61,208 nt of DNA from an uncultured Gammaproteobacteria bacterium (GCA_964633905.1 CAZWIT010000002.1:1-61208), one strand, 5' to 3'. Shown: positions 1-53,072, counted from the first letter of the stretch. A program made the numbers and translations. The notes: a model not told the origin generated them from the letters alone.

Positions 1-90
1 TGGCGGAAGGTGAGGGATTCGAACCCTCGGAGGTTTTGACACCTCGCACGCTTTCCAAGCGTGTGCACTCGACCACTATGCGAACCTTCC
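1..90 (-). tRNA. tRNA-Ser(GGA)
   Basis: Reverse complement folds as a cloverleaf: GGAAGGT acceptor, CACGC-TTGGAAA-GCGTG anticodon arm, long variable arm, GGTTCGAATCC T-loop, encoded CCA. Confidence 0.97.
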
Positions 91-12000: not shown

Positions 12001-15000
12001 GTGGGGAACGCAAACAGCTGATACAATTTTTAATAAAGCAGACGATGCTTATAATAAGATTAATTCCGTGCAAACAGAATTGGGTTATAATGGTCAGTCA
12101 ACTACCGCTTATCAAGACTTGCAATCAGTATTGGCTTATGTTGATCAAATGGAGGGCTATGTTGATACTTTAGAAACTTTAGTTGGTTCGCCAGCCGATT
12201 TATCTAGTGCGGATACTTTGTTTGGCAGAATCAAAAAAAATTACGAGGCTATTGAAGCTTTGAATAATTTGTCGGCCCAACAAGTTTGGGAGTATGGTAC
12301 ACGTACTTTGACCGGTGGGGTGACACTTGATGATCCTACTCAGATTTGGGACGTGGCTTCTGCTTTGCTTTCCAATTCTAGTTCAATCGGTAAATTAATT
12401 GTTGATAATTTAGATACTACTATTTCTTCACGCGGCACTAGCAACCTAACAGCAGCTGATGTGTGGTCAGCGGCTACTAGGACTATTACTAATATCGAAA
12501 ATGATGGTTTGGCAGCTTTAGCTGCAGCGGTTTGGGCTAATTCCACCAGGGAATTAACAGCTGGTGATTTAACTGCGCAAAGAGTTTGGGATACTTTATT
12601 AACTTCGATTAATACTATTGGTAGTATTGGCGTATTGTTAGGTACTAATATTGATACTACTATTTCTTCTCGAGCTTCCGCGGCTGATTTAGCTAGCTTG
12701 CAAAGCACATTAAATGGTTTAATTAGTAATTTAATTGTTGCTCAAAAAGCTGTTAACGATCCTAACCCTTCGGCAACAGAGTTTATTACAACTTTGACTA
12801 ATGCTAATGATGATTTTTATAATGATGGTGTCTTGGTCTTTACTTCGGGTGCCAATGCTGGACAGGTTAGAAGGATTACTAATTATGATGGAGCAACTAA
12901 AACAGTTACCGTTGATCCAGCTTTAAATATAGAACCAAATAGTAGTGATACTTTTACGATTTTAGCGTCAACTGCCAATGCTTCTTTAGACCCAGCAGCC
13001 ATTTGGACTTATGCTAATCGTCGTTTGACCAGTGGTAATTTAGATGTAGGTAGTTTGGCTACTTTGTCTGATTTAGAATCTAGCGAAGCAGCTTTAGGAG
13101 CTCAACTGGATACTTTGATTAATAATTTGATTATTACCCAAAAATCTATTAGCGATGCCAACCCTTCTACTACTTCTTTTGTTACTACTTTAACAAATTC
13201 AACTAGTGATTTTTATAAGGATGAAGTCTTAGTCTTTACAACTGGTGCTAATGCTGGGCAAGTTAGGCGTATTAGTAGCTATAATGGAGCTACCAAGTCT
13301 CTTACTATTACTCCAGCTTTATCCAATACACCGACTGATGGTGATGATTTTACTATTTTGGCTTCAACTGCCAATGCATCTTTAGATGCCACAGCAATCT
13401 GGGCTTATGCTAATCGTACTTTGACGGCCGGCACTTTAGATTCTGGTAGTCTGGCGACTCTATCTGATTTGCAATTAACTGAAACTAATTTAACTGACAA
13501 GATTAATGAAAATCAAACTCGTTTGGATAAGATTATTAGTAGCTTAATTGTTGCCGAAAAAGCAGTTAATGATGCCTCGGCTTCTAATGTGACATTTATT
13601 ACTACTTTAGCTAGTGCAGTGGATGATTTTTATAATGATGGTGTCTTGGTCTTCACCTCGGGTGCCAATGCCGGACAGGTGAGAAGGATTACTAATTATG
13701 ATGGGGCAACTAAAACAATTACCGTTGATCCAGTTTTAAGCCTTGCTCCTGGCAATGGAGATACCTTTACTATTCTAGCAGCTACAGCTTCAGCTAGTGC
13801 TAGCTTGGATGCAGCCGCAGTTTGGAATTATGCAACGAGGCGCTTGTCAGACGGCACTTTAGATTCCGGTAGTCTAGCAACTTTAGCTGATTTGCAATCA
13901 ACTGAAGATAACTTAGATCTTAGCATTACAGCGGTAGCTAATGCAGTTGATTTGTTAAGTGATGATTTAATTTCTATTAGGTCAACTGTTAATGAAAATA
14001 CAACCTCCAGCACACTAGCTAGTTTTGCTACTAATTTAAGTTCTTCGGTTAACGATTTATATAATAATGCCCTGATCACTTTTACTACTGGTAATAATGC
14101 CGGTGTAGCACGACGTATCGAAGACTATAATGGTACTACTAAAATTTTGACGATTGAGCCAGACTTGACGACACCACCATTACACGGTGACGGTTTTACT
14201 ATTTTAAAGACTTTAGCGGTGCCAGTTACTAAGATTGATACTATTGGCACTGATGTTGCAGGCATCAAAGATGATGTTAGTACTATCAAGGCTGATATTG
14301 CTTTGATTAAATCTCGTTTAGATAATATTGATGCCAATATTATAGCTTTGGAAACAGCAGTTGATAACATTGAAGTGAGTAGCAGTGGTAGTACTGTTAA
14401 TAATATTACTCGTGTTTATGAAATAAAACCGGAAGAAATGTTTAGCTCCATGAATTCAATTGCTTCCTCTATCCAAAACATAAACTCTACTTTAGGGAGA
14501 TTAGATAACAATACTTTGAGCAATATTTTATCTGTTGCTCAAGAAAATACCACAGATTTAAAATATGTACGCAATAAATTAGCTGACTTTAGGGCAGTAA
14601 GTACAGTGCAGCGACAAGTTTTAGATAATGTTGCAGTACCAGTTGTAAATACTTGGTACACATCTGGTTCGGTTGATCTCAATATTATGGTTTCTAATCC
14701 TGCTCAAACTCCTCAAAAAGTACCATTTAAAATTTATTTACCCAAAGAAGCAAAGTTAGAGCATATTATGGATGATGGCGGATTTAATATTCAGTATGAT
14801 ATTCAGCTAGATACTTTGTATGCTAGTGGTGAATTAGAGCTAGCGCCCGGTGAGTCGGTCAAGAAATTTATAAAGATGCGGGATATTTGGCAGATTCCTG
14901 AAGACGAGACAAAATTAGCTAAATCTCAAGCAGATGAATTTTATAAAAAATTAGTTAAGGGCGCATATTCTTCGCAAGCTTTACTTTTAAAAAATGACAT

Positions 15001-15997
15001 TGATACTAGAGTAGAAAAAATTGTTCGTACTCAGGAAGAAAACATTGCTTCGCCGCAAGACAAAATTATGTCTTATCGTGAAAATAAAGAGAGCTTAGCG
15101 GCAGTAAAAAGTGATTTAGAAGAATTAAAAGCTTTAATAGCACAGGCGGATTCTTCTAAAGGATTTTTAGGTGCCTTAGGTGGCATTCAGACTATTTCAG
15201 TTTGGGGTATCATAATTGCTTTCGTTACAGGTTTTGGTTTATTGGTAGCTATTTTGTTTTCAATGTGGAAACATCAAATGGCTATTGCTAGTGGTCAAAT
15301 GGCCTTGCAGTCACATTTGATGGGCAATAAAGCGATTAATTCAGAAAGAGGCTCTAGTGCTAAAAAGAAAAAGAAAAAAACAAATAGCAAAATTAGGCAA
15401 GAGCAAGTAGCAGCAGATTCTCAAAATCAAGAAACGATTAAGGTAGCTACTAATTTTAAGACTTATGTAAAACAAGCCTTTTCTAAATTATTTGGTAAAA
15501 ATAAAGTATCATTATTAGTATTATTGGCACTATTACTAATATATTTTGCTATTAGGCAATTTAATCTTTGGTCAGTGGTAGCCGGCTTAAATAATAAGCC
15601 AGTTAGCGAAAATCAAATAACAACAGAAACTTCTAGCCCTGATTGGCAGGATAAAACTACGGCTAATTTAAGTGCCGATGATGTTAATCTTTCTTTTGGC
15701 AATGAAGAAGGAGCTCTGGCTACTACTTCTAATCCTAGTATGCTCGCAACTACCACTGTTCCAGAAGAGTCTACTTTATATATTAATATAAAATCTACGC
15801 CCACGGGTTGGTTAAATGTGCGCAAGAGTGCTAGTAAAACTGCAGAAATCTTGACGCAAGTAAATAGTGGTGATAGATTTGAATCTATAGAGAAAAAGAG
15901 TGTTATTGGCGATGATTATGATTGGTATAAAATAAATTTTTCCAAAGACCAATCGGGTTGGGTTTATGGGCAGTATGTTGCGGAGATAGAGGGGTGA
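3095..15997 (+). CDS. Giant (4300 aa) membrane-anchored surface protein: ConA/LamG-like and beta-helix-like regions, internal repeats, coiled coil, two C-terminal TM helices, SH3b
   Basis: Uninterrupted ORF. LamG-like GTIDFW..WYHLRVAW..FDGAIDEFNIFD; C-terminal WLNVR..WYKI..GWVYGQYV (SH3b); five FYN..G.NAG..RRI..Y.G.TK repeats. Confidence 0.85.
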   Translation: MYKQALPSWRFRPSVQTKQRIIKTVELFFYFLVWLVKIVSSVLTAIGYILFISLVFITKNTWQLMPPLLRWLRFKSAPYLLNILRLTLKLIKASFLFIGRKIPVLELALRWLFKNIFLAFFYAFKGIYLVLATILKIIWYGFTIFFVKFLGFFGPKASYLYDNRAEIKVRANKQVKEYKLFLLWLAKPFLHFLPKKYEKKILPKTKKINQALSPVIGLSDFKHLLREPKQILLRRAIASWLVFFLVISTFGVASLTPLFNWLFRDRQPAYAATFTGAVKVSAGSTTLSTNGSWYTAMAYSGDGINGDAEAGTFNPIHPGPSATDGAAGALALGHVSVAATATYAAAQFIGFKPSDTGNLRGVQLILENLTITSLSNVDIVVELLSFPTASCTTSCTNYVTGTQGAYTYPSDTVVLRRAVKQFNQGLSGENLAPGQYGRGTFDFRFDPEVAVTAGAHYGFRIINMGAGTPVFGTWAANAPYGDFPTVNGTIRTIGANDIDLTNAPTINMPKVLAAHNGLTAAAMVAANSAAGVGLPTVRRTQNEHWTATYSSANANWTLTGTVSGTQTNKLTTPTTGGTGAAWVNDGVPFTTLTAASTASTVLCVASTSGFATNQTINLWDADTATVSLTVASVTNSHASCSDGPAIITTAATVVGFTPEKNASVAQAIWKNRIVQGAMTTLTADSAVSTRVCVASIDGFSAAVGTAASVQIWDNDTAPIVTHRIASTNASDGACPASGPSIILAANLTTAFTVAQGAMISEISANISNIGTPSDGDVLRFTSYNFTQNPIGLNSQLARTTSVVLAYAKSQALATSNTNYPFLSNRHIYFVAYGDANTTAPADGDIVIVGNGKSNADPYDSTNLTNDYTWLAKEQHVVSIDRSWDAALAYTGNYGAAIGDGAGTRGNFAAYSFNGGWVSAVITPGSKLTIADNTNKHYRLTIPGKIVLDSDAILAFGDSTDPLPASTHADIYFDNVSPAVSSNLGSDSAASTSLTVVSTTGFAPGDTIVIDDNDSPAITRIIAAIENSTTLTLTAAAVTGYTTAQSAFAAKGPQTELPTGSDRRAGVYTMTGLTGTGAGTQDNNRTGRVNIYGQGSDNFRTMKSDLAVDIDGNIDTGYLGNNSTDAGNTWVDVKDNVVGNWQPLDNIAVAGATNQVVDNNLSSVRMGGNDDASQFPVWTGLAGLGRNALPTSNMEVAEIGTVPITNVYNADYNGGSPLYSVNYATSTTWTLFGDGANSELNDAIYFGDQGTNMMYSLEANLGTLMNASAIFTWEFYNGAGWTAFTPRDAYKYQTRTGHTIPLSANTTRNSYTVSVTSGNQANFGVDQVVMIDDNDSSPIYRRISAVAAGVITFTEPVTADYTTAQSASISRLNGGQWKSFDPSNFFTENGNAPRRILSWTPYDLSGTPAKTTINGVNAYWVRVRISGFTSWTTSPVNQNTPIGMSGIERIDSGALNVSSGSQEAKISQITTGLSYDPNETFTLEYGNSPGWIETHKYSAAAIVPPSAPYVWHIQNGQLNINETNLTHLNIQNTNVDTTDYTMSGLVYMDMVADATSRRLGFLMRQSLDGNGYAALITKTNAANTVGFYTTLAGVPTVIGTPTSKAFSDSTWYCLKSQVSGTTLNVKFWATTDCNSGEPGSWDFTTTNSTYTSGKAGVYAGSATSGSGTKAIFDSISSDTGWTDNFDDVDYWRLTGSSASVIGNAYPSVPFTSSYLNFTIKHKGGWNGTVRPEIGDKIYISSTAIRSYKGLDSSVGITTNNTNTKYEVWDFEWNPAASNYTVTGSATGAAGTATPGTTYTAPDNKVSLRINSGTPTATKFGDRMLLLQNNYLRNNGAWTGVNGMGSAVLMPPTWTLTGSPIATRYNIEGISGTATARQHGTIDFWFKTNYSGSPATSTSPFGQYLLDYAANGDTDRLFIRHNTNGKLEVAIYAGAAQGTLLQQTFSATAGQWYHLRVAWREAATAFKRAWLDGVAFETNQGTTLGTRGANAGLLRIGNNWQYNGAFDGAIDEFNIFDAELDTSGSCNWGNFDVPTTVWTGGATPANCPSATGANIYRASFDTAMNPQEGWVWADYAYGSPNMIFTNGADTGNERIRVITYPQRTRVWVDNTGEKYTPSARIKYGSGHEENGTAATLAGWAHNFTYHHKAARDSSSAPTYSPVLNLKRSTHIWSDEEISYTGATLVAANIVNQGLGFGVSAVGLAGLSNMNLSHLSMENQYNNFAVTTNPYTSVTPYPSQTISKSVFYNYFDRAYTVVSKTQGSNMVGAYFVTTHVGAANIGTGYNAFTSQNVGIDGSIFMGHRNAYVTVPPAAAGGAATFVSGRLYTVANSEFYNNGVTGAGTSGALNFGVGVAKVNINNNKFSINTNGIRLHGNAFVAMSDNVLDGHVSDGAVTVGAEYGSGIRSHPSYSSVSVTDDGSIYGRGMWNEADISMPPNTTTFEAESLLQFTGVDTQILSPVFFGTQDYNNMSRLGDHYMASTIPGTDIRINYSSSTKDIVNQSTFGNMRTTGAGLIDTTVHTAGGYAWRMEPQSSDVPLEYSAKVIGVANEPLAVTGYIRVNSYYGSSNLPTVTLSGLGMTGANLTWTAANSANEWQQFVVSGTPNESALADLTISSQSSFVVEDEGSSEVIFNPLGNYLPPWVEDVDKSWTPNQWVGYLFKDTYGRIFEVVKNTPTILFLKGIVAPHLKSTTMTNATAGDYQLFRRPYVYLDDVSVLSGTVDTGTLDFFSAGQPVSPWLSTGLTASSIWGAQIGSFADIDGSFGQLLNDRLAVKRGLVSDVAASTTSFVTDLTQATSNFYQNQTVVMMSGQNAGISRRISSYNGTTKAITVDAALPFAPAFNDEFVILSQYTNISSSGGGASAEEIAQAVWEYVDRKLTSATLTSGGALATSAEIAALQADVTYIRNKVDDIYTDTQYISGIVDDILAKWGIYSAADINTSLNTVLTRIGEHTDLSSANTLFGRSKYLQEKWGTQTADTIFNKADDAYNKINSVQTELGYNGQSTTAYQDLQSVLAYVDQMEGYVDTLETLVGSPADLSSADTLFGRIKKNYEAIEALNNLSAQQVWEYGTRTLTGGVTLDDPTQIWDVASALLSNSSSIGKLIVDNLDTTISSRGTSNLTAADVWSAATRTITNIENDGLAALAAAVWANSTRELTAGDLTAQRVWDTLLTSINTIGSIGVLLGTNIDTTISSRASAADLASLQSTLNGLISNLIVAQKAVNDPNPSATEFITTLTNANDDFYNDGVLVFTSGANAGQVRRITNYDGATKTVTVDPALNIEPNSSDTFTILASTANASLDPAAIWTYANRRLTSGNLDVGSLATLSDLESSEAALGAQLDTLINNLIITQKSISDANPSTTSFVTTLTNSTSDFYKDEVLVFTTGANAGQVRRISSYNGATKSLTITPALSNTPTDGDDFTILASTANASLDATAIWAYANRTLTAGTLDSGSLATLSDLQLTETNLTDKINENQTRLDKIISSLIVAEKAVNDASASNVTFITTLASAVDDFYNDGVLVFTSGANAGQVRRITNYDGATKTITVDPVLSLAPGNGDTFTILAATASASASLDAAAVWNYATRRLSDGTLDSGSLATLADLQSTEDNLDLSITAVANAVDLLSDDLISIRSTVNENTTSSTLASFATNLSSSVNDLYNNALITFTTGNNAGVARRIEDYNGTTKILTIEPDLTTPPLHGDGFTILKTLAVPVTKIDTIGTDVAGIKDDVSTIKADIALIKSRLDNIDANIIALETAVDNIEVSSSGSTVNNITRVYEIKPEEMFSSMNSIASSIQNINSTLGRLDNNTLSNILSVAQENTTDLKYVRNKLADFRAVSTVQRQVLDNVAVPVVNTWYTSGSVDLNIMVSNPAQTPQKVPFKIYLPKEAKLEHIMDDGGFNIQYDIQLDTLYASGELELAPGESVKKFIKMRDIWQIPEDETKLAKSQADEFYKKLVKGAYSSQALLLKNDIDTRVEKIVRTQEENIASPQDKIMSYRENKESLAAVKSDLEELKALIAQADSSKGFLGALGGIQTISVWGIIIAFVTGFGLLVAILFSMWKHQMAIASGQMALQSHLMGNKAINSERGSSAKKKKKKTNSKIRQEQVAADSQNQETIKVATNFKTYVKQAFSKLFGKNKVSLLVLLALLLIYFAIRQFNLWSVVAGLNNKPVSENQITTETSSPDWQDKTTANLSADDVNLSFGNEEGALATTSNPSMLATTTVPEESTLYINIKSTPTGWLNVRKSASKTAEILTQVNSGDRFESIEKKSVIGDDYDWYKINFSKDQSGWVYGQYVAEIEG
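12809..13733 (+). repeat. Intragenic 112-bp near-identical direct repeat (12809-12920 and 13622-13733)
   Basis: 6 mismatches by eye, 5 synonymous. Confidence 0.9.
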
Positions 15998-16013: not shown

Positions 16014-16985
16014 ATGAATAAAAAATTTTTATACATATTATACATCTTTTTGTTTTTGTCACTTTTATTTAATATTTTATTATTATTTAAGTTGAAACAA
16101 GAACGGGTTGCCTACTCTAAAAAAGATTTAGAGTATAAAAATTTGTTTAATGGTTACAATCTGTTGAGTGATGATATTAAGGTTTTGCCAATTGATAGTA
16201 ATCAAGACCCAGACAGGATTTTGTTGCATTTCGTGCCCCTAAAAGAAAAGATTGTTAATAAAATTAAGAAATATGGTGATAGCAAGAATGTTGGTATTTA
16301 TATTCAAGACTCTACTTCTGGCTCTTGGTTAGGTATTAATGAAGATAATACTTTTGTGCCAGCTAGTTTATTAAAAGTACCTATTGCTATGGCCACCTAT
16401 AAAAGATTTGAAGCTGTTGAAATTAATTTAGATGATCAGTTAATAGTTAGGGAAGAGGATATAGATAAACAAGCTGGCGTGCCAGATCGTTATATTATTG
16501 GCAATAGCTATAAAGTACGTGAGCTTTTAGAATGGATGTTAAAGATTTCTGATAATACCGCTAAAAATATTTTAAAGCGTAATTTAAGTCCAGAAGAATT
16601 AAATTCAGTTTTTACTCACGTGGGTATTCCTAATCCATATACGGAAATTAGTGATAATCAAAATGTTACTCCGCGTCAGTACGAGCGTATATTTAAATCT
16701 TTATATTTTAGTACTTATCTTAAACCAGAAAATTCCCAGGTCTTATTGAATATGATGACTGACACTAGGGTCGAGGGTTTATTATCGGCTAAGTTACCTT
16801 GGGAAATACAAGTATCTCATAAGTATGGAGAACGGCCAGATGCTCTGCATGATTGTGGCATTATTTATAATAAAGATAAACCATATTTTATTTGTGCCAT
16901 GACTGCTAATATAGAAATGGAAAAAGCTAGAGATTTGATTAGTGATATTTCATTAGATGTATATAATTATTTTAATAATAATTAG
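16014..16985 (+). CDS. Class A beta-lactamase-like serine hydrolase with N-terminal anchor
   Basis: SxxK (ASLLK), SDN, HKYG in place of KTG. Confidence 0.85.
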   Translation: MNKKFLYILYIFLFLSLLFNILLLFKLKQERVAYSKKDLEYKNLFNGYNLLSDDIKVLPIDSNQDPDRILLHFVPLKEKIVNKIKKYGDSKNVGIYIQDSTSGSWLGINEDNTFVPASLLKVPIAMATYKRFEAVEINLDDQLIVREEDIDKQAGVPDRYIIGNSYKVRELLEWMLKISDNTAKNILKRNLSPEELNSVFTHVGIPNPYTEISDNQNVTPRQYERIFKSLYFSTYLKPENSQVLLNMMTDTRVEGLLSAKLPWEIQVSHKYGERPDALHDCGIIYNKDKPYFICAMTANIEMEKARDLISDISLDVYNYFNNN

Positions 16986-18207: not shown

Positions 18208-19116
18208 ATGACAAAAAACAATTCACCAAAATTTGCTTTTTGGTACTTACTATCATTAGTGGCTTTAGTTTTTGTTGCTTTTTCAGTGGGGGCTATTATT
18301 TTCCAGATTATTAATAAATATGTAGCCGATGTCGTGACCAATGTTTATGAATCAAGGGTTTCGATGGATCTATTAAAATTTGCAATTTCTGCCTTGATTG
18401 TAGCAACGCCTTTATATTTTTGGATGCAGAGCTTAATTTTTAAAAATCTAAAATCTGGCGAACTAGATAAAGAAATGGGAGTGCGTAAATGGTTAACTTA
18501 CTTTATCTTATTGATAGCAGCAATAGTAGTTTTAGGCTATTTGATTGCTGTGATTAATAGTTTACTTGATGGGGAAGTAAAAACTAAATTTATTTTTAAG
18601 ACTTTGACTGTTATTGCTATTGCCGCTATAGTATTTTCCTTTTATTTTTATGATATTAAAAGAGAAAATGTTACTCAGGGTAAAGATAAATTGATTATTA
18701 CTTATTTATTTGGTTCTTTGTTTATTATCATTGCTGCTTTAAGTTTTGCTTTTTTAGTTATTGAATCACCTAAAGAAGCTAGAAATAGAAGGATTGATCG
18801 TCAGGTTGTTGATAATTTTTATACAATTAATTCAGCAGTTGATAATTATTATATTGCTAATAAAAAATTACCTGAAAATTTACAAATGTTATTAGAAGTT
18901 GATAATAATTCGTTAATGGAAAGTCAATTAGTCAACCCTCTTAGTAAAAAGAATATAGAATATAAAGTAGTGTCAGATATTCAGTATGATTTATGTACGG
19001 ATTTTTTGACGGACTCTAATCAAGATGAATATCGTACAGAATGGAAATATAAAATTGGTTATGATTGTATTACCATGACAGTTTACAGTGCGCAAGTGCA
19101 GCCAATGATAAAATAA
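18208..19116 (+). CDS. DUF5671-like membrane protein
   Basis: YLLSLVAL..; RKWLTYFILLIA; ESPKEARNRRID pattern. Confidence 0.7.
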   Translation: MTKNNSPKFAFWYLLSLVALVFVAFSVGAIIFQIINKYVADVVTNVYESRVSMDLLKFAISALIVATPLYFWMQSLIFKNLKSGELDKEMGVRKWLTYFILLIAAIVVLGYLIAVINSLLDGEVKTKFIFKTLTVIAIAAIVFSFYFYDIKRENVTQGKDKLIITYLFGSLFIIIAALSFAFLVIESPKEARNRRIDRQVVDNFYTINSAVDNYYIANKKLPENLQMLLEVDNNSLMESQLVNPLSKKNIEYKVVSDIQYDLCTDFLTDSNQDEYRTEWKYKIGYDCITMTVYSAQVQPMIK

Positions 19117-26072: not shown

Positions 26073-26196
26073 ACCAAGCAAGGTTGATGATTTCTTAATG
26101 GCTCCGGCAGAAAATTTGGAGTAAAAAATAATTTTCTGCACTTCGCCAAGATTAAAAAAATACCAACTAAGGTTGATATTCTTTTAATGGCTCCGG
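26073..26196 (-). repeat. Degenerate tandem duplication of tRNA-Asn 3' end plus terminator (89-bp offset)
   Basis: ttaatggctccgg at 26095-26107 and 26184-26196; aaggttgat at 26080-26088 and 26169-26177. Confidence 0.75.
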
Positions 26197-26262
26197 GGGA
26201 GGGATTCGAACCCACGACCAATTGGTTAACAGCCAACTGCGCTACCACTGCGCTACCCCGGA
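26188..26262 (-). tRNA. tRNA-Asn(GTT)
   Basis: GTTGG-CTGTTAA-CCAAT anticodon arm, GGTTCGAATCC, CCA; no intron. Confidence 0.97.
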
Positions 26263-26510
26263 ATAAAATTTTTAATAAGATTTTCTTTTTTATTTTTTTT
26301 CCACTTTTTAATTTGTGCTTCGCGCCTCATAGCCTCTATCTTATTTGTAAATCTTTCAAAATATACTATTTTTACTGGTTTTCTATGCTTGGTGTATTTA
26401 GCTCCATTACCACTATTATGTTTTTCTTCCCTTTGTTTTATGTTAGTTGTGTAGCCGGCATAGAGCGTATTGTCTTTGCAGCGCGCAAGGTAGAAAAAAT
26501 ATTTTTGCAT
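26253..26510 (-). CDS. Solo GIY-YIG nuclease (85 aa, UPF0213/YhbQ-like)
   Basis: FFYLARCKDNTLYAGYT..R..KHNSG.GAKYT..RKPV..VY.E....AMRREAQIK. Stop TAG is tRNA-Asn nt 8-10. Confidence 0.9.
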   Translation of the reverse strand: MQKYFFYLARCKDNTLYAGYTTNIKQREEKHNSGNGAKYTKHRKPVKIVYFERFTNKIEAMRREAQIKKWKKNKKENLIKNFIPG

Positions 26511-26542
26511 ATCATTTTTTGAGGTCGTTTTTGTATATACAC

Positions 26543-26673
26543 AATGTCCTTCGGCTCACTCTGTTCGCTCAGGACATTCGCCTCGTCTTTCTTGATGAGG
26601 GGTTGAGGCACTGAACAAAGTGAAGTGCCGAAACCATGAGCGAGGAGGAATGAAATGACGACGAGTCGAATGG
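26543..26673. repeat. REP-like palindrome cluster on the tRNA-Met 3' trailer
   Basis: gtcc-TTCGGCT-N9-CGCTCA-ggac; ggcac...gtgcc hairpin; 40-bp CCA-TTCGACT-N21-CGCTCA-TGG unit (minus strand) at 26634-26673. Confidence 0.75.
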
Positions 26674-26748
26674 TAGCAGGGGTGGGGGTCGAACCCACGA
26701 CCTCGGGCTTATGAGTCCCACGCTCTAACCAAGCTGAGCTACCCTGCC
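26671..26748 (-). tRNA. tRNA-Met(CAT), elongator type (Ile2 not excluded)
   Basis: CTCATAA loop, paired position 1-72, ends TACCA. Confidence 0.9.
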
Positions 26749-26840
26749 ACGAACTATTCGCTACGCTCAAGTTCGTGGCCAAGCCTCTTGGTTTAATACT
26801 AAGTGGCTGTGCCAAAAACCCGAACGAAGTGAGTGGTTTT
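26746..26840. repeat. REP-like palindromes between tRNA-fMet and tRNA-Met
   Basis: ccacgaact-attcgctacgctca-agttcgtgg; aaaacc-cgaacgaagtgagt-ggtttt. Confidence 0.7.
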
Positions 26841-26916
26841 TGGTAGCGGGAGCCGGACTCGAACCGGCGACCTCCAGGTTATGGGCCTGGCGAGCTGCCA
26901 ACTGCTCTATCCCGCG
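26841..26916 (-). tRNA. Initiator tRNA-fMet(CAT)
   Basis: CGCGGGA acceptor with unpaired C1:T72; anticodon arm CCAGG-CCCATAA-CCTGG. Confidence 0.9.
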
Positions 26917-26945
26917 TCGTAAAAAATTTGGCTTAATAATTCATA

Positions 26946-27006
26946 TGGTCGGGGCGAGAGGACTTGCCACCGCCTTTGGCGGGGTCCCGCTCCGCGGGAA
27001 ACCTCT
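26946..27006 (-). pseudogene. tRNA-Pro-type 3' fragment interrupted in the T-loop by a 33-nt insert
   Basis: Removing 26967-26999 gives AGAGG-TTCAAGT-CCTCT-CGCCCCG-ACCA: a perfect T-arm, acceptor 3' strand and CCA. Confidence 0.85.
26967..26999 (+). repeat. Double-hairpin mini-insert, copy 2 (CCACCGCCTTTGGCGGGGTCCCGCTCCGCGGGA)
   Basis: Same stems and ends as 348..382; only the loop regions differ. Confidence 0.85.
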
Positions 27007-27042
27007 TATTATAAATACAGTAAACCTTGTAAAAACTACTCT

Positions 27043-27119
27043 TGGTCGGGGTGACCCGGCTTGAACGGGCGACCTCACGCACCCCATGCGTGCGCGCTAG
27101 CCAACTGCGCCACACCCCG
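27043..27119 (-). tRNA. tRNA-Pro(GGG)
   Basis: CGGGGTG acceptor; CACGC-ATGGGGT-GCGTG; CCA. Confidence 0.95.
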
Positions 27120-27130
27120 TGGACATTTGC

Positions 27131-27237
27131 TGTGCCCTTCGGCTACGCTCAGGGCATTCGACGACCACTATTCTAATTAAATTTAAGCGGTCGAAGACCA
27201 TGAGCGAAGTTTCACAAAGTGAAACGGAGTCGAATGG
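27131..27237. repeat. REP-like palindrome cluster on the tRNA-Ala 3' trailer
   Basis: gccc-TTCGGCT-A-CGCTCA-gggc; 40-bp CCA-TTCGACT-N21-CGCTCA-TGG unit (minus strand) at 27198-27237. Confidence 0.75.
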
Positions 27238-27311
27238 TGGACCGTACAGGGCTTGAACCTGCGACCTCTTCCATGCCATGGAAGCGCTCTAGCCAACTGA
27301 GCTAACGGCCC
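27235..27311 (-). tRNA. tRNA-Ala(GGC)
   Basis: G3:U70 pair; CTTCC-ATGGCAT-GGAAG; CCA. Confidence 0.97.
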
Positions 27312-27335
27312 TTGTAAAAATTTTGGCGGTAAGAA

Positions 27336-27422
27336 TGGTACCGAAGAGAGGACTTGAACCTCCACGACCTTGCGGTCACTGGATTTTGAGTCCAGCGCGT
27401 CTACCAGTTCCGCCACTTCGGC
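27336..27422 (-). tRNA. tRNA-Leu(CAA)
   Basis: CTGGA-CTCAAAA-TCCAG, long variable arm, CCA. Confidence 0.97.
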
Positions 27423-48136: not shown

Positions 48137-48973
48137 ATGCTTACTAAAAAAATAAATAAATGTCCTCGTTGTACTATGCGTAAAAAATGTGTTTGGCATA
48201 AAAATGTATTAGGCTTCAATTTAATTGAGCTAATTATAGTTGTGGCTGTGGCTGCTATTTTGATGGCCGCTATCTTCTTAAATGAAGATCCTTTGGCAAG
48301 AGTTGGTAAGGCAAAAGATGCGGAAAGATTACAAGAGGTGCAGAGCATTGCAAAGGCTATAGAGATTTATGGACTTGATAATGGTAGTATTCCTTCTGAT
48401 CTTAATAGCACTAATATTAGCCAGGGTGAAATTTTAGTATTATGTAGTGCGGCTGGTACAGCCGAATGTGCTGGTCATTCGAGAGAGTGTTTAGTAGTGA
48501 GTGATGCTAATTTTTTGAAATATTTAAATACTTTACCAGTTGACCCGGAAAAGACTTCGACAACTAATACTGGTTATTATATTACCAGAACAGCTAGTAA
48601 TGCCGTTAAGGTTGGCGCTTGTAATTCTTATGATGCTGATTTGGAAATTTCGGTAGTAGCTAAAGCTACTTTACCAGCCGAAACATCCACTTGCGGTAAC
48701 GGTGTTGTAGAAGGTGCAGAGGTTTGCGATGATGGTAATAATATTAAAGAACAGTGTAGCGACGGAGTAGTGCAAGTCGGTGCTTATTGTAGGCATGATT
48801 GTTTAGCTATTATAAACCTTAATGAAGTTTGTGATTATTATCAATGGACTCACGATTGTGATTATAATGGTGGTGAATACACTATTTCAGATGTTGGTGT
48901 TGGCGATTTTTGTAAGGATGATTGTTCAGAAACTACCGTAAGTTGCAATATACCACAGGTACCAGAGCCTTAA
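48137..48973 (+). CDS. Type IV pilin-like protein with C-terminal Cys-rich repeat
   Basis: G|FNLIELIIVV class III signal; LPVDP; CGNGVVEGAEVCDDGN. Confidence 0.85.
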   Translation: MLTKKINKCPRCTMRKKCVWHKNVLGFNLIELIIVVAVAAILMAAIFLNEDPLARVGKAKDAERLQEVQSIAKAIEIYGLDNGSIPSDLNSTNISQGEILVLCSAAGTAECAGHSRECLVVSDANFLKYLNTLPVDPEKTSTTNTGYYITRTASNAVKVGACNSYDADLEISVVAKATLPAETSTCGNGVVEGAEVCDDGNNIKEQCSDGVVQVGAYCRHDCLAIINLNEVCDYYQWTHDCDYNGGEYTISDVGVGDFCKDDCSETTVSCNIPQVPEP

Positions 48974-49004: not shown

Positions 49005-49934
49005 ATGTTTAAGCCTAGATTAGCCTTTAGCTTACTAGAGGTTATTATTGTGGTAGCTATCGTAGTAGCAATGGCTAGCTATTTTTATGTTTCTGCTAAG
49101 CCAGCTAAGCGTCTAGGTGAAGCTGCTGATCTGCAGCGCAAATATGATGTTGAATCTATTGAAAAGGCAATTAAATTAGTGGCTACTGATAGCGGTAGTT
49201 TGGCAGCTGCCTTAAGTGACTTAAATGATGCTACTCCTTATATGCTTGTAAAAGCTGGAGGTGATACGGTAGGTACTTATACTTGTACGGCAACGGGCAC
49301 TAGTATAGCAAAAGCTGATATTTCTACGGCCATTTCTTCAGTTATGCCTAATTTACCAGTTGATCCTGATTTAATAGAGTCAAGTAACGACACTGGTTAT
49401 TATTTAGTTAAAAATGGCAATAGTTATAATATTGAAGCTTGTGATAGTTATGAGTTAGCCGCTACTATTGGCAATAAACAACAATGTGGTGATGGCTATT
49501 GTGGCAATACGGAGTCTTGTAGTACTTGTACAATAGATTGTGGCGATTGCGCTGTGCCCGTCTGTGGTAATGGTATAGCCGAAGCTGGCGAGCAGTGTGA
49601 TGATGGCAATTTAGTTAATACGGATGATTGTCTTAATACTTGTTTGACTCCGACTTGTGGTGATAGCTATGTTTGGGCTGGCAATGAGACCTGTGACGAT
49701 GGTAATGCTGTTACGGAAACTCAAACCTGTGGTAATGCTATAAAAGAAAATGGTAGTTATTGCAATGCTTCTTGTTCTGGCAGCATAACTTTAACTGAAG
49801 CCTGTGATTATGTCGGTGATAGTCATTGTGGTAGCGGGATTCCTAGTAATCCTTATGAGAACGCTGTTGGTTGTGCCTCAGCTAATTACTGCAATGTAGG
49901 CTGTGGTTCATGTGTTAAGACTTGTCCGCTGTAA
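49005..49934 (+). CDS. Type IV pilin-like protein with Myxococcus-type Cys-rich (DUF4215-like) repeats
   Basis: A|FSLLEVIIVV; LPVDP; CGNGIAEAGEQCDDGN, CGDSYVWAGNETCDDGN. Confidence 0.85.
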   Translation: MFKPRLAFSLLEVIIVVAIVVAMASYFYVSAKPAKRLGEAADLQRKYDVESIEKAIKLVATDSGSLAAALSDLNDATPYMLVKAGGDTVGTYTCTATGTSIAKADISTAISSVMPNLPVDPDLIESSNDTGYYLVKNGNSYNIEACDSYELAATIGNKQQCGDGYCGNTESCSTCTIDCGDCAVPVCGNGIAEAGEQCDDGNLVNTDDCLNTCLTPTCGDSYVWAGNETCDDGNAVTETQTCGNAIKENGSYCNASCSGSITLTEACDYVGDSHCGSGIPSNPYENAVGCASANYCNVGCGSCVKTCPL

Positions 49935-50016
49935 AACTTTATATAAAATTTAATATTTAAAAAGTTAATATTAGCTTAACTTTTTTTATTTTACTAAAAA
50001 TGTTATAATTTAAGTA

Positions 50017-50397
50017 ATGTCAAACAATATTTTGATCAAAGCTTTTAAGGCATTATTTCTAGATTTAGTAGCGGAGATTTTGTATTTCCCTTTGTGGTGG
50101 TATAGTGTAGGTCTTAAAAGTATCTTGCTTAATTTTTTTGCTAACTTGAGAGAAGCTCAAAGAAACTTGGGCTTAGGCTTATTATTTAGAAACATGTTTC
50201 AGCCTATGTTTGGTCAATCTGATCGGGCGGGTAGGATTATTAGTTTTTTTATGCGTTTGCTGATTGTGGCTTATAAATCTATTTTGTTTTTGGCACAATT
50301 TATTTTATATTTTACGATTGTAATATTTTGGGCGGCTTTGCCAGCTTTAGTAGTAGTTGGCTTACTTTATAATGCAGTTGGTATATGGCAGAAATAA
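50017..50397 (+). CDS. Membrane protein overlapping the Clp ATPase start
   Basis: YFPLWWY..; QPMFGQ.D..GRIISFFMR; hydrophobic C-terminus. Confidence 0.75.
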   Translation: MSNNILIKAFKALFLDLVAEILYFPLWWYSVGLKSILLNFFANLREAQRNLGLGLLFRNMFQPMFGQSDRAGRIISFFMRLLIVAYKSILFLAQFILYFTIVIFWAALPALVVVGLLYNAVGIWQK

Positions 50398-53072
50398 GAT
50401 TACAAGCATGTGAAAATTGTCAGGGCTTGGGTCAAGTAAATAATAAATCTTGCCCAGCTTGTTTTGGCTACAGACGTTTTTATTTTACTAATAATAATTT
50501 TTATTATTGGGACCACCCGATTGATTATTTACATATTTTTGTACGCGAGCTTAAAGAAACTGTTAATTTAATAATAAATATTTTTTTAATTGGCGCTAGC
50601 GTTTTTACTATGATTTTATTGTACTTGATTCTAAACCAAGTACAGTTTGATCCAATGCGTTTAGTTGATTTTTTTTCAAAGCCGCAAGTTGATAGTTTTT
50701 GGTTGTTTATTTTAGTGGCTTTAGATATGTATCTATATTATCGTTTGAAATATCCACTCTTAAGAGAAGAAGCTAGACAGAAAAAATTAAAAAGTAGTGA
50801 TGTTTTTATAAAACATAATTTAGCCAGCAGTTTAAATAAAGAAACCATTTTAGTTTTGGACAAAGCTTGGCTGTATGCTCAGTATAAAAAAGTTTTTCCA
50901 GTTGGCGTTTGGCAAGTCTTATATGAATTACTTAACGATAAAGACATTAAATTAGTTTTGGCGCGGCTTGGTCTAGGGTCTGAAAATTTGCAGCAAGTGA
51001 TTAATGATAATATTACTAAGCTTGTTAAAATTGATGGTGATAATGAAGTTTTACACGCAGATTTAAAAGATGCCTTACTTAATGCTTATTTACACATGTT
51101 GAGTCGGCGTGATCAGAGGATTATTGAAGTAGATTTATTATATGGCCTAGTTGTTTCTAGTTCAGAAATTCGTAACTTTTTTTATGATTTTAATGTTGAT
51201 GAAGATAAGATTGATAATGTTATTGCCTGGCTTACTATCAATAAGGAATTGTATAAAAATTATCAACTTTTTCGAAGCCGTGCTCGTTATAAGCCAAAGG
51301 GTAATGTTAATCGGGCTTGGACCGCTATTGCTACGCCAATTTTAGATGCTTTTTCTGAAGATTTGACCATGCAATCTCGAGCTGGTCGTTTGGGTATTTG
51401 TGTGGCTAGAGATAAAGAAATTGGTGCTATTTTGGAAACAGCCGAGAGCGGTATTTCTAGTGTTATTTTGGTAGGTCCACCAGGAGTTGGTAAGACCAAT
51501 ATTATTGAAGGCCTGGCTAATTTAATGACAGCTGAAGAAGTGCCAAGCTTATTTCAAGATAAAAGATTGGTATCTATTTCAGTGCCATCCTTAGTTTCTG
51601 GTGCATCTGGCGCTGGTCAAATGGAAGAAAGGCTACTTGCTATTTTGCAGGAAGTGGCTATTTCGGGGAATATTATTTTATTTATTGATAATATTCATAA
51701 TTTAATAGGCGTATCTTCGCAGAGCAATAAAGGTATTGATTTGTCAGAAGTTTTGGCTAGCGAAATTAGGCAAAATAAGATCATAGTGCTGGCTACTACC
51801 ACCCAAAAACATTATGTTGAAACAATTGAAAATACCGAGCTAGGCAATTCTTTTAAAAAGATTATAGTAGGCGAGCCAGATAAAAATCAGACAATCAAAA
51901 TAATGGAGGCGCACGTTGGTCAAGTAGAAAATAAAAATAATGTTTATTTTACTTATGAGGCTTTAGAAAAGATTTATGAATTGTCTAATCGCTATATGCC
52001 TGATAGTGCCTTACCACAAAAAGCAATTGAGCTTTTAGACGAGGTTGGTATTATGATAGCGCAAACGCGTCGTCCTAATAAATTAATTAGCGCTGAAGAT
52101 GTAGCTAAGCTTGTGAGTAAAAAAACAAACATACCATTAACTCAAGTTACTACTCAAGAGTCAGCTAAATTATTAAATATCGAAGCAGAAATTCATCAGC
52201 GCATCATTGGTCAGGACGAAGCGGTTAAGTATGTGTCTTCAGCCTTACGTCGGGCTCGGGCAGAACTTAGGGATAAGAAAAGACCAATTGTTAACTTATT
52301 ATTTTTGGGGCCAACTGGTGTCGGTAAAACAGAACTAGCAAAAACCGTAGCTCAAGTTTATTTTGGTGACGAAAAAAATATGATCCGTCTTGATATGTCA
52401 GAATATCAGACGCAGAGTTCTTTGCCTCGTTTGATTGGCGCTTTAGAAAATGGTGTGCCAGGGCTGCTTACAGAAATGGTGCGCCACAAGCCTTTTGCTT
52501 TGTTGCTTTTAGATGAAATTGAAAAAGCTCACAAGGATATTTTAAATATATTTTTGCAAGTTATGGACGATGGTCGCTTAACTGATGCTTTGGGTCGCAC
52601 GGTTGATTTTACTAATTTAATTGTGGTTGCCACTTCAAACGCTGGCACTTCTTATATTCAAGATCGTATTAATGAAGGCAAAACTGTTGATAGTTTTAAA
52701 GATGATTTAATTAAAAATGAAATTCGGCCGATTTTTAGCCCAGAATTTATCAATCGTTTTGATGGTGTCATTGTTTTTAAACCTTTAAACACTGAAGAAA
52801 TATTTAAGATTACTGGTTTAATGATCAAACAAGTTAAACAGCGTTTAGAATCTAAAGGTATTTTCTTTGAGATTACTGAAGAAGCCCAAAGAGAATTAGC
52901 TACAATTGGTTTTGATCCAGTTTTTGGTGCTCGGCCTTTACGCCGTGTAATTCAGGAAAGGGTAGATGATGCTTTGGCTAACTTTTTATTGACTGGTAAA
53001 GTTGGTCGGCGCGATATTATTATGTATGATGTAGGTGGCAAGATTACTGTTAAAAAAGTACAAGGCTATTAA
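50385..53072 (+). CDS. Membrane-anchored ClpA/B-family AAA+ ATPase (degenerate D1)
   Basis: CENCQGLG..CPACFG, two TM segments, GPPGVGKT, GPTGVGKT, LLLDEIEKAH, GARPLRR. Confidence 0.9.
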   Translation: MAEIRLQACENCQGLGQVNNKSCPACFGYRRFYFTNNNFYYWDHPIDYLHIFVRELKETVNLIINIFLIGASVFTMILLYLILNQVQFDPMRLVDFFSKPQVDSFWLFILVALDMYLYYRLKYPLLREEARQKKLKSSDVFIKHNLASSLNKETILVLDKAWLYAQYKKVFPVGVWQVLYELLNDKDIKLVLARLGLGSENLQQVINDNITKLVKIDGDNEVLHADLKDALLNAYLHMLSRRDQRIIEVDLLYGLVVSSSEIRNFFYDFNVDEDKIDNVIAWLTINKELYKNYQLFRSRARYKPKGNVNRAWTAIATPILDAFSEDLTMQSRAGRLGICVARDKEIGAILETAESGISSVILVGPPGVGKTNIIEGLANLMTAEEVPSLFQDKRLVSISVPSLVSGASGAGQMEERLLAILQEVAISGNIILFIDNIHNLIGVSSQSNKGIDLSEVLASEIRQNKIIVLATTTQKHYVETIENTELGNSFKKIIVGEPDKNQTIKIMEAHVGQVENKNNVYFTYEALEKIYELSNRYMPDSALPQKAIELLDEVGIMIAQTRRPNKLISAEDVAKLVSKKTNIPLTQVTTQESAKLLNIEAEIHQRIIGQDEAVKYVSSALRRARAELRDKKRPIVNLLFLGPTGVGKTELAKTVAQVYFGDEKNMIRLDMSEYQTQSSLPRLIGALENGVPGLLTEMVRHKPFALLLLDEIEKAHKDILNIFLQVMDDGRLTDALGRTVDFTNLIVVATSNAGTSYIQDRINEGKTVDSFKDDLIKNEIRPIFSPEFINRFDGVIVFKPLNTEEIFKITGLMIKQVKQRLESKGIFFEITEEAQRELATIGFDPVFGARPLRRVIQERVDDALANFLLTGKVGRRDIIMYDVGGKITVKKVQGY

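Follow-up and report, generated by a model that had tools for sequence, protein, structure and literature searches.

A Clp/Hsp100-type ATPase of Patescibacteria with a predicted membrane anchor, one catalytic ring and a dedicated membrane partner

Introduction

The locus described here raises the question of what work can be done by a Clp/Hsp100-type double-AAA+ ATPase that is predicted to be anchored in the membrane, carries no catalytic glutamate in its first ring (D1) and no pore-loop tyrosine in either ring. It lies in a 61,208-nt stretch of DNA (GCA_964633905.1, CAZWIT010000002.1:1-61208; the window hereafter, at its full length) recorded as that of an uncultured Gammaproteobacteria bacterium, and comprises two overlapping genes which encode a membrane protein of 126 residues, referred to as the partner, and an ATPase of 895 residues.

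Clp/Hsp100 enzymes are the model for protein threading, a process for which pore-loop aromatic residues are needed and in which AAA2 is the main motor (PMC6593972, PMC8666677). The family of the window ATPase keeps one perfect ATPase site and sheds its other interfaces, and would represent a natural experiment in what such a motor can do without threading.

The best explanation of the pair is a membrane AAA+ machine of two obligate components that is restricted to Patescibacteria, also known as the Candidate Phyla Radiation (CPR). As a whole, including ClpP- and DnaK-independent, ATP-driven remodelling of membrane clients, this reading is given a probability of about 0.5; the statements on the architecture of the two proteins are held with considerably more confidence. 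Judged by sequence, the pair appears to be a CPR-specific, previously undescribed, membrane-integral variant of Hsp100 that would be driven by its second ring (D2) and independent of ClpP. No published description of the ATPase family was found in the full-text literature searched, which omits most subscription journals.

A family found in Patescibacteria

More than 110 full-length orthologues of the ATPase, with 40-97% identity, were retrieved by database search. All those bearing a taxon name belong to Patescibacteria (Komeili-, Kerfeld-, Falkow-, Nomura- and Parcubacteria), and where a functional name is given it is "ClpC" or "AAA family ATPase". A scan of the GTDB species genomes with N-terminal and D1 patterns detected relatives in 319 genomes, every named match again being from Patescibacteria; a search with the N-terminal 320 residues only returned four fragments and added nothing. 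Unless other totals are stated, counts of motif states given below were made over 114 orthologues, down to 40% identity, throughout which the losses in D1 reported in a first-pass annotation of the window recur rather than being local decay. Attached to a core, lineage-specific membrane machine, the label "ClpC" would mislead reconstructions of metabolism and proteostasis in Patescibacteria.

Many records of metagenome-assembled genomes (L001, L003, L005 and others) are labelled "uncultured Gammaproteobacteria bacterium" despite their Patescibacteria content and nearest named relatives, and these names are probably placeholders. The ATPase of L001 shares 96% identity with that of the window, and the window organism is present in wastewater metagenomes.

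Domain architecture and membrane anchor

In the 895-residue protein, Pfam recognized AAA (D1, residues 360-479, E = 4e-27), AAA_lid_9 (500-582, E = 5e-12), AAA_2 (D2, 633-793, E = 7e-53) and ClpB_D2-small (801-877, E = 1e-21), which is the composition of a tandem-AAA+ ATPase of class I. The closest protein by sequence was Bacillus subtilis ClpC (phmmer, 436 bits). An AlphaFold2 (AF2) model of the ATPase (pLDDT 84, pTM 0.71) was matched by Foldseek to ClpC, ClpC1 and ClpB with TM-scores of 0.84-0.86 over about 585 residues at about 40% identity, with a probability of 1.0 for ClpC and ClpB and about 800-830 columns aligned with full-length ClpC chains. From the N-terminus onwards the model contains the strands of a zinc ribbon, two helices (48-85 and 102-136), a helical N-domain (146-300), a disordered linker, and D1 and D2 without a coiled-coil insertion (coordinates in Table 1).

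The first-pass annotation had pointed to a CxxCxGxG..CxxCxG motif and two transmembrane helices at the N-terminus, and the family alignments, hydropathy, charge distribution and AF2 model all bear this out. The four cysteines of the putative zinc ribbon (C9, C12, C23 and C26) are invariant in two family alignments; the Pfam model DnaJ_CXXCXGXG matches the ribbon weakly (E = 0.008, below cutoff). A few early-branching members (L058, L066, L069, L076, L077 and L080) are devoid of the ribbon and keep the transmembrane region and the partner. Of the two predicted transmembrane helices, the first (58-85) is strongly hydrophobic and the second (103-120) moderately so, ending in a conserved DMYLYYR. 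According to charge counts over the family, the intervening loop (86-102) is poor in Lys and Arg and both flanks are rich in these residues, so that by the positive-inside rule an N-in/C-in hairpin is predicted, with zinc ribbon and AAA+ body both in the cytoplasm.

The hairpin is followed by a divergent, putatively Clp_N-like N-domain for which Pfam Clp_N gave 14.9 bits against a cutoff of 20.7 (E = 0.03) in the window protein, PF02861 being recorded for most orthologues. The linker that joins this domain to D1 (residues 296-318) ranks with the best-conserved parts of the family, and T313 and T317 do not vary at all; it is predicted to be disordered (pLDDT below 50 at 307-312) and has no counterpart in canonical ClpC. 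As the first-pass annotation had stated, no M-domain is present: ClpC residues ~409-465 are unmatched, the AF2 model shows no long helix pair at 545-625, and ClpA, which itself has no M-domain, aligns to the ATPase as a single stretch (residues 318-873 to ClpA 167-725). This lack implies that the ATPase is coupled to neither DnaK nor MecA.

A D1 ring predicted to be non-catalytic

Residue-by-residue alignment to B. subtilis ClpC confirmed the three departures from consensus that had first been read in D1. The pore loop changes from VAGTKYRGEFEDR in ClpC to VSGASGAGQMEER in the window protein, where SGAG, within the reported GASGAG, occupies the position of KYRG; Walker B changes from ILFIDELH to ILFIDNIH, Asn taking the place of the catalytic Glu; and the arginine fingers change from AALERRFQ to TELGNSFK. 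Across the orthologues, the catalytic Glu occurs in 0/114 (Asn in 73, Asp in 38), as does an Arg at either finger position, and an aromatic residue is likewise found in none of the pore loops, which are made of Gly, Ser and Ala in all cases. The Thr/Ser of Walker A is retained in 56 of the 114. By these motifs D1 is non-catalytic across the whole family; in the window protein, where Walker A is intact and Walker B reads DN, ATP is probably bound and not hydrolysed.

An invariant ATPase site and a variable pore loop in D2

The catalytic motifs of D2 (Walker A and B, Arg finger and sensor 2) had been described as intact, and they are so in every orthologue: K648, T649, D710, E711, N752, R791 and R850 are each present in 114/114. 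D2 is also the domain with the highest mean identity to the query (75%, compared to 56% for D1 and 35-45% for the N-terminal parts).

The D2 pore loop of the window protein, aligned to that of ClpC as RLIGALENGV----PGLLTE, is four residues shorter and contains no Tyr or other aromatic residue, in agreement with the reported absence of GYVG. The more general claim that the protein "lost its threading loops" applies to the window protein and to about 86-89% of the family; it does not extend to the remaining 11-14%, in which a canonical D2 loop (APPGYxG) is kept. A near-canonical, full-length loop (APPGY(A/S/G)G...GG[YF]LTE) was found in 19/179 members, and the others, including the window protein, have a loop of 5-8 residues made of Ser, Pro, Gly, Asn, Gln and Thr that is 4-6 residues shorter. 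In an independent metagenome sample reached via the partner gene, GY was present in the D2 loop of 6/44 proteins. The orthologues that keep the tyrosine carry the same partner gene, and this provides a direct, built-in comparison between Tyr-keeping and Tyr-less versions of the same machine.

In a neighbour-joining tree rooted with ClpC, the Tyr-keeping members form one grade inside which Tyr-less members are nested, with Tyr-less clades on both sides; loss of the tyrosine amounts to at least five changes by parsimony and to nine Tyr-less clades under a loss-only model. As the canonical loop persists in 11-14% of the members, the tyrosine was lost secondarily and more than once, and its absence does not define the family. 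The sequences indicate that the pore tyrosine is under relaxed constraint and the ATPase site under absolute constraint. The strongest indirect argument of this analysis follows from that combination: repeated loss of the tyrosine next to an invariant D2 ATPase site suggests a conserved job that is not reliant on Tyr-mediated threading. The short Gly, Pro and polar loops in both rings of the window protein, together with the repeated loss, likewise suggest that it does not depend on processive threading of this kind. On the most far-reaching reading, given below and regarded as unlikely, the repeated loss of the tyrosine would record how a threading AAA+ motor evolved into one that does not thread.

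The ClpP-docking loop ([ILVM]G[FLM]; IGF/IGL) was searched for after sensor 1 of D2 and found in none of 150 parsable members, consistent with the earlier observation that no IGF loop follows TSNAG. The segment from TSNxG to FxPEF measures 29-30 residues in these members, the length found in ClpB, and the region of the ClpC VGF loop is deleted in the window protein. A non-catalytic D1, an intact D2 and the family-wide lack of a ClpP loop agree with the first-pass proposal that the protein would be neither a canonical unfoldase nor a ClpP partner and would have a single active ring.

The membrane partner

The first-pass annotation had also proposed a dedicated membrane partner, and gene order over the family supports it from both directions. 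A partner homologue lies immediately 5' of the ATPase gene, on the same strand, at 78/78 loci having upstream DNA, the distance between the genes ranging from -96 to +88 nt and being mostly -12 to +8; reciprocally, the ATPase gene lies immediately 3' in 64/65 metagenome loci found with a partner profile. In the window the two genes overlap by 13 nt, as had been reported (ATPase ATG at 50385, partner TAA at 50395-50397), and translation of the ATPase is probably coupled to the partner gene. The sole partner gene with no ATPase gene downstream (L148, 3992-4363) is followed by one encoding a 133-residue transmembrane protein and then by one encoding a 673-residue protein rich in GNVGIGTT repeats.

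A profile search of a library of 1.84 billion representatives placed 647 representatives in the partner family at 50% clustering, nearly all of them stand-alone proteins of 105-170 residues. Two motifs are near-invariant, ILYFPLWWYSxGL (residues 21-33) and FxPMFGQxDxxGRIISFFMR (residues 61-80), and flank a central loop rich in Lys and Arg which is presumably cytoplasmic. About 45 hydrophobic residues (~76-120) form the C-terminus as a helix or hairpin, and the AF2 model (pLDDT 86.5) is a helical hairpin. No match was found in Pfam (at E values up to 5 and with all 49 aligned members), NCBIfam or PADLOC, and a Foldseek comparison of the fold with the Protein Data Bank (PDB) returned nothing below E = 1. 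The partner is thus a new protein family, with 647 cluster representatives and no Pfam or NCBIfam model.

In one protein of a high-GC organism (P0232, 414 residues) a partner domain (158-258) runs in frame into a pre-transmembrane and transmembrane region of the ATPase type; it is either a natural fusion or an artefact of a frameshift or gene call. As a proposed definition, the family combines an upstream partner with FPLWWY and GRIISFFMR motifs and an ATPase with a transmembrane hairpin, a KPKxxxNRAYTAIATP linker, a dead D1 and an intact D2, all of which were found in the window sequence.

Relation to known AAA+ machines

By descent, as read from its sequence, the ATPase belongs to the Clp/Hsp100 superfamily, and it fails the tests that define ClpA, ClpB, ClpC and ClpE. 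The NCBIfam equivalog models of ClpB, ClpA, ClpK, ClpG and ClpV all match it, each at less than about half its cutoff: ClpB (TIGR03346/PRK10865), the top match, scores 548 bits against 1232.1, in two separate stretches, and ClpA (TIGR02639) 498.8 bits against 993.

The best match in sequence and structure is to ClpC (B. subtilis, Staphylococcus aureus) and ClpC1 (Mycobacterium tuberculosis), with which the ATPase has in common the two-ring build, a putative N-domain being followed by D1, D2 and D2-small. The short M-domain of ClpC (docking site of MecA/McsB), its VGF/IGF loop, its live D1 and its pore tyrosines are missing from the window ATPase, the ClpP loop being missing across the family; the ATPase has in addition a zinc ribbon, a transmembrane hairpin and an obligate membrane partner, which are absent from ClpC. 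It resembles ClpB/Hsp104 in having a D2 without a ClpP loop and the short TSN-to-PEF segment, and differs from these proteins in having no coiled-coil M-domain for docking of DnaK, an inactive D1, no pore tyrosines and a membrane anchor. With ClpA it has in common the direct succession of D1 and D2, with no M-domain between them, and D2 is the main motor in ClpA likewise (PMC8666677). However, the IGL/IGF loop and D1 catalysis of ClpA are missing, and the N-terminus is unlike that of ClpA.

ClpE and ClpX carry N-terminal zinc modules, and that of ClpX binds substrates and adaptors. The window ATPase is similar to both in being a Clp ATPase that carries a Cys4 zinc module right at its N-terminus, although in its case the ribbon precedes a transmembrane hairpin. 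Both rings of ClpE have active pore loops, and ClpE also possesses an M-domain and a ClpP loop (PMC13125188); in the window protein the ribbon is present, the M-domain and the ClpP loop are missing, and ClpE from the PDB scores lower than ClpC and ClpB.

Outside the superfamily's bacterial members an analogy exists with Torsins, Clp-like proteins without aromatic pore loops that are thought not to thread (PMC5425593). Torsins together with LAP1/LULL1 combine the lack of an aromatic pore loop with an N-terminal hydrophobic membrane segment and a dedicated membrane cofactor, and the likeness to the ATPase and its partner is one of analogy only. A Torsin is a single ring of the endoplasmic reticulum lumen whose Arg finger is supplied by the cofactor, whereas the window ATPase has its own R791, a second, pseudo-ATPase ring, and a partner that is a helical hairpin and not AAA-like. 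In geometry only, the ATPase is also comparable to FtsH, Msp1/ATAD1 and Yme1, in which an N-terminal transmembrane anchor turns the ring entrance towards the membrane; unlike the window ATPase, these are single-ring proteins of the classic clade with essential aromatic pore-1 loops and, in FtsH and Yme1, a protease domain, features of which it has none. Finally, NSF (D2), p97/Cdc48 (D1) and Pex1/6 (D1) are tandem AAA proteins in which one degenerate ring serves assembly and the other works; they are soluble, belong to another AAA clade and have aromatic pore loops in the active ring. By analogy, the window ATPase would act most like a composite of a tandem AAA protein with one structural ring, a membrane-anchored AAA protein in its geometry, and Torsin-LAP1/LULL1.

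Proposed mechanism and the threading alternative

In the mechanism proposed here, the ATPase would assemble, like other Hsp100 proteins, into a hexamer that six transmembrane hairpins hold to the membrane, N-domain and D1 facing its cytoplasmic side and partner subunits encircling the hairpins. D1 would serve as a structural assembly ring that at most binds nucleotide, in the manner of NSF D2 or p97 D1, and D2 as the sole motor, around a channel that would be smooth and probably widened. Through the partner, zinc ribbon and N-domain the machine would receive clients embedded in or close to the membrane, which it would remodel or release at the expense of ATP, independently of ClpP, DnaK and adaptors of the MecA type. 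That this activity takes place in a non-threading mode is a tentative proposal from the pore-loop sequences, considered somewhat less probable than its converse. The most far-reaching version is that of a first integral-membrane Hsp100, present CPR-wide, with one live ring under a pseudo-ATPase ring, doing membrane work without threading as a bacterial counterpart of Torsin-LAP1/LULL1; it is regarded as unlikely.

Several points weigh against the two-component remodelling machine as set out above. The evidence for a physical complex of ATPase and partner consists of the gene overlap, the strict co-occurrence and the possible fusion P0232, and the hexamer, its orientation and its clients are putative. 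The canonical GY loop in D2 of 11-14% of the orthologues indicates that the ancestral machine probably threaded. Position 694, beside the shortened D2 loop, is hydrophobic in 110/114 members, and the window clade could translocate with a non-aromatic grip by way of this region; in ClpE the pore-loop position of AAA1 is an Ile, according to the description of mutant I194A (PMC13125188). The neighbour-joining tree behind the counts of at least five changes and nine Tyr-less clades is without support values. As regards evidence presented below, the RNA data consist of assembled metatranscriptome contigs, which can contain DNA, and coexistence with a canonical Hsp100 covers two genomes only, not the organism of the window.

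Some of these points converge on the main rival explanation, to which a minor though appreciable chance is given: a threading translocase acting as a membrane extractase or dislocase with FtsH-, Msp1- or Yme1-like geometry, in which D2 would pull by means of a non-aromatic grip and the partner would be an adaptor or membrane gate. With the transmembrane hairpin located ahead of the N-domain, the ring should have its entry side turned to the membrane, and the D2 motor is intact; the ancestral threading suggested by the APPGYxG loop, the hydrophobic residue 694 and the aliphatic residue of ClpE are all compatible with such a grip. Nevertheless, the D2 loop is shortened and consists of small or polar residues and Pro in the window protein and most of the family, the D1 loop contains only Gly, Ser and Ala in all members, and there is no loop for a protease partner. 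Several independent losses of the tyrosine, with catalytic residues left invariant, would be unexpected if the grip were essential.

Gene neighbourhood, transcription and the pilins

In the window the pair is preceded directly by two genes for pilin-like proteins, and a role in pilus assembly was suggested by the first-pass annotation. In this explanation the ATPase and the partner, both of them membrane proteins, would constitute a motor or scaffold for type IV pili or envelope fibres. A pilin cluster occurs near the pair in 25/80 loci, 16 of which have it directly upstream. However, 20 of the 25 belong to the close clade, and by a motif-based count a pilin-like open reading frame (ORF) lies within 3 kb in 11/23 loci of that clade versus 3/31 of distant clades. 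The proposed check of gene neighbourhood thus gave a divided result: the partner is the only universal neighbour of the ATPase, and the pilins are lineage-specific.

The commonest other neighbours are TGT (46 loci), a DUF11 protein (42), GlyRS (39), IleRS (37), an M16 peptidase and a permease (35 each), RecO (33) and RsmI (31). Clades other than the close one have rnpA-yidD-yidC or TGT upstream of the pair and GlyRS or a WecA-like gene downstream. In 12 loci of distant clades (e.g. L037, L040 and L047) the pair directly follows rnpA-yidD-yidC, at times with an ORF of 86 residues in between, and a glycosyltransferase of the WecA/MraY type lies 3' of the pair in at least eight distant-clade loci. 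ClpP is encoded about 4 kb upstream of the pair in seven loci, where RNase Y is also encoded farther upstream. Surroundings of this housekeeping kind speak for a core function in the envelope or in proteostasis, and not for pili or defence.

Two metatranscriptome contigs span the junction between partner and ATPase genes, X7 (100% identity, 50188-50545) and X11 (from a strain about 90% identical, 49980-51122). In the four metatranscriptomes checked, no RNA contig covers the adjacent pilin ORF (49005-49934), and the first pilin ORF is matched by a single short contig. The contigs over the junction, with none over the adjacent pilin, suggest that the pair is an expressed, co-transcribed unit of its own and that the vicinity of the pilins reflects synteny within a lineage.

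Between the pilin genes and the pair, a weak, AT-rich hairpin followed by a T-run was read by eye 3' of the upstream pilin-like stop codon, and may be a terminator that divides the pilin gene from the operon. A promoter-like element (extended -10, TGTTATAAT) comes after it, also read by eye; its position only 7 nt 5' of the partner ATG implies a leaderless or near-leaderless transcript. A scan for terminators and promoters gave no significant excess over shuffled sequences, the hairpin being below the G+C threshold of that scan. Type IV pili use dedicated ATPases, PilB and PilT, which also counts against a pilus motor; this explanation is considered improbable, and the association with pilins is rejected for the family as a whole.

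In both pilins of the window the C-terminal half contains Cys-rich DUF4215/myxo_disulf repeats, an unusual decoration for a pilin.

Coexistence with canonical Hsp100 and remaining explanations

A further possibility is that in CPR the ATPase has taken the place of ClpB/ClpC as general disaggregase or unfoldase, its sequence having merely drifted as part of a reduced genome while it still does the same cytosolic job. The best matches to ClpC and ClpB, the database name ClpC and the housekeeping surroundings are in its favour. Against it stand the lack of an M-domain, and with it of DnaK or MecA coupling, the lack of a ClpP loop, of D1 catalysis and of pore tyrosines in the window protein, the membrane anchor with its obligate membrane partner, and equivalog scores far under the ClpB and ClpA cutoffs. 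In addition, L069 (5045-7759, minus strand) and L080 (5605-8244, minus strand) have a gene for a fully canonical Hsp100 located 1.3-2 kb upstream of the pair and in divergent orientation; this protein has KFRG, FIDELH, ERRF, a long ClpB-like coiled-coil M-domain, GYIG and an IGF ClpP loop. In these genomes, whose ATPases are early-branching members without the zinc ribbon, the atypical ATPase is therefore an additional paralogue. ClpP is encoded upstream of the pair in seven loci other than these two, and in such cases at least the atypical ATPase exists side by side with standard machinery. Replacement of ClpB/ClpC is accordingly judged very unlikely.

The canonical Hsp100 of L069 and L080 may be the source of the atypical family by duplication.

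An anti-phage defence module with a membrane effector (like DolB of Dodola, or PDC-M37B) and a decaying pseudogene are the weakest explanations and were both rejected as barely credible. PADLOC does match PDC-M37B (E = 6e-38) and DolB (E = 6e-35), and an effector role of the membrane partner is conceivable, but the matches span only the D1 lid and D2 (residues 464-762) and reflect homology to ClpB in general; PADLOC matches nothing in the partner, and DolA is missing. The gene order with tRNA synthetases, TGT, RecO and yidC persists over 319 species, which sets it apart from a defence island. An intact, transcribed ORF with 40-97% identity and the same motif states in the 114 orthologues speaks against decay.

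Features of the locus and of the window

Table 1. Positions of the genes, domains and motifs discussed in the text, counted from the first nucleotide of the window.
Feature	Coordinates	Strand	Remarks and basis
Two pilin-like genes	48137-48973, 49005-49934	+	Directly upstream of the pair; prepilin N-terminal methylation motif
Putative terminator hairpin, aagttaa-tattagc-ttaactt, then T-run	49962..49988	+	Weak, AT-rich; read by eye, 3' of upstream pilin-like stop
Putative extended -10 promoter element, TGTTATAAT	50001..50009	+	7 nt 5' of partner ATG; read by eye; promoter role conjectural
Partner gene	50017-50397	+	126 aa; small membrane protein of uncharacterised family; ORF call
ATPase gene	50385-53072	+	895 aa; predicted membrane-anchored Clp/Hsp100-type double-AAA+ ATPase; ORF, Pfam, NCBIfam, AF2, Foldseek
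Cys4 zinc ribbon, C9xxC12xGxG...C23xxC26xG	50409..50462	+	Cys alignments; beta strands in AF2 model
Transmembrane helix 1, residues ~58-85	50556..50639	+	Kyte-Doolittle >2; peak of family mean hydropathy; AF2 helix 48-85
Transmembrane helix 2, residues ~103-120	50691..50744	+	Family hydropathy, charge counts; AF2 helix 102-136
Putative Clp_N-like N-domain, divergent and helical, residues ~146-300	50820..51284	+	NCBIfam ClpA model aligns from residue 157
N-domain-to-D1 linker, [FY]RxRAxFKPKGxxNRAYTAIATP, residues 296-318	51270..51338	+	Family-specific; column counts; peptide picked as most conserved in the search for related loci
D1 AAA+ module, residues 319-585	51339..52139	+	Non-catalytic by motif; no M-domain insertion
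D1 Walker A, GPPGVGKT	51474-51497	+	Alignment to B. subtilis ClpC
D1 pore loop, SGASGAGQ	51597-51620	+	Alignment to B. subtilis ClpC
D1 Walker B, ILFIDN	51675-51692	+	Alignment to B. subtilis ClpC
GNSF replacing ERRF arginine fingers	51843-51854	+	Alignment to B. subtilis ClpC
D2 AAA+ module, residues 600-880	52182..53024	+	Catalytically complete by motif; no ClpP-docking loop
D2 Walker A, GPTGVGKT	52308-52331	+	Alignment to B. subtilis ClpC
D2 pore loop, GALENGVPGL	52437-52466	+	Shortened, Tyr-less; alignment to B. subtilis ClpC
D2 Walker B, LLLLDE (LLLLDEIEKAH)	52500-52517	+	Alignment to B. subtilis ClpC
D2 sensor 1, N752	52638-52640	+	Alignment to B. subtilis ClpC
D2 Arg finger, R791 (NRFD)	52755-52757	+	Alignment to B. 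subtilis ClpC
D2 sensor 2, GARPLRR	52926-52946	+	Alignment to B. subtilis ClpC

The DNA of the window is low in GC (about 0.33) and its gene content is of the CPR/Patescibacteria type. Its genes include those for IleRS, RecO, TGT, GlyRS, an M16 peptidase, an AI-2E-type permease and RsmI, as well as ParAB, TopA, DprA, RelA/SpoT, DnaG and RpoD.

A single ORF of 4300 residues (3095-15997, plus strand) probably encodes a giant surface protein; its sole Pfam matches are Laminin_G_3 (1875-2018), a Phage_BR0599-like segment (3512-3562) and a C-terminal SH3_3. Downstream of it lie genes for a protein of the Beta-lactamase2 family (16014-16985, plus strand) and a DUF5671 membrane protein (18208-19116, plus strand). 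Six tRNA genes (Asn, Met, Met, Pro, Ala and Leu) are clustered at 26188-27422 on the minus strand, and a tRNA-Ser gene is found at the edge of the window (1-90, minus strand). The six-gene cluster accounts for a local rise in GC and a flat GC skew in the window.

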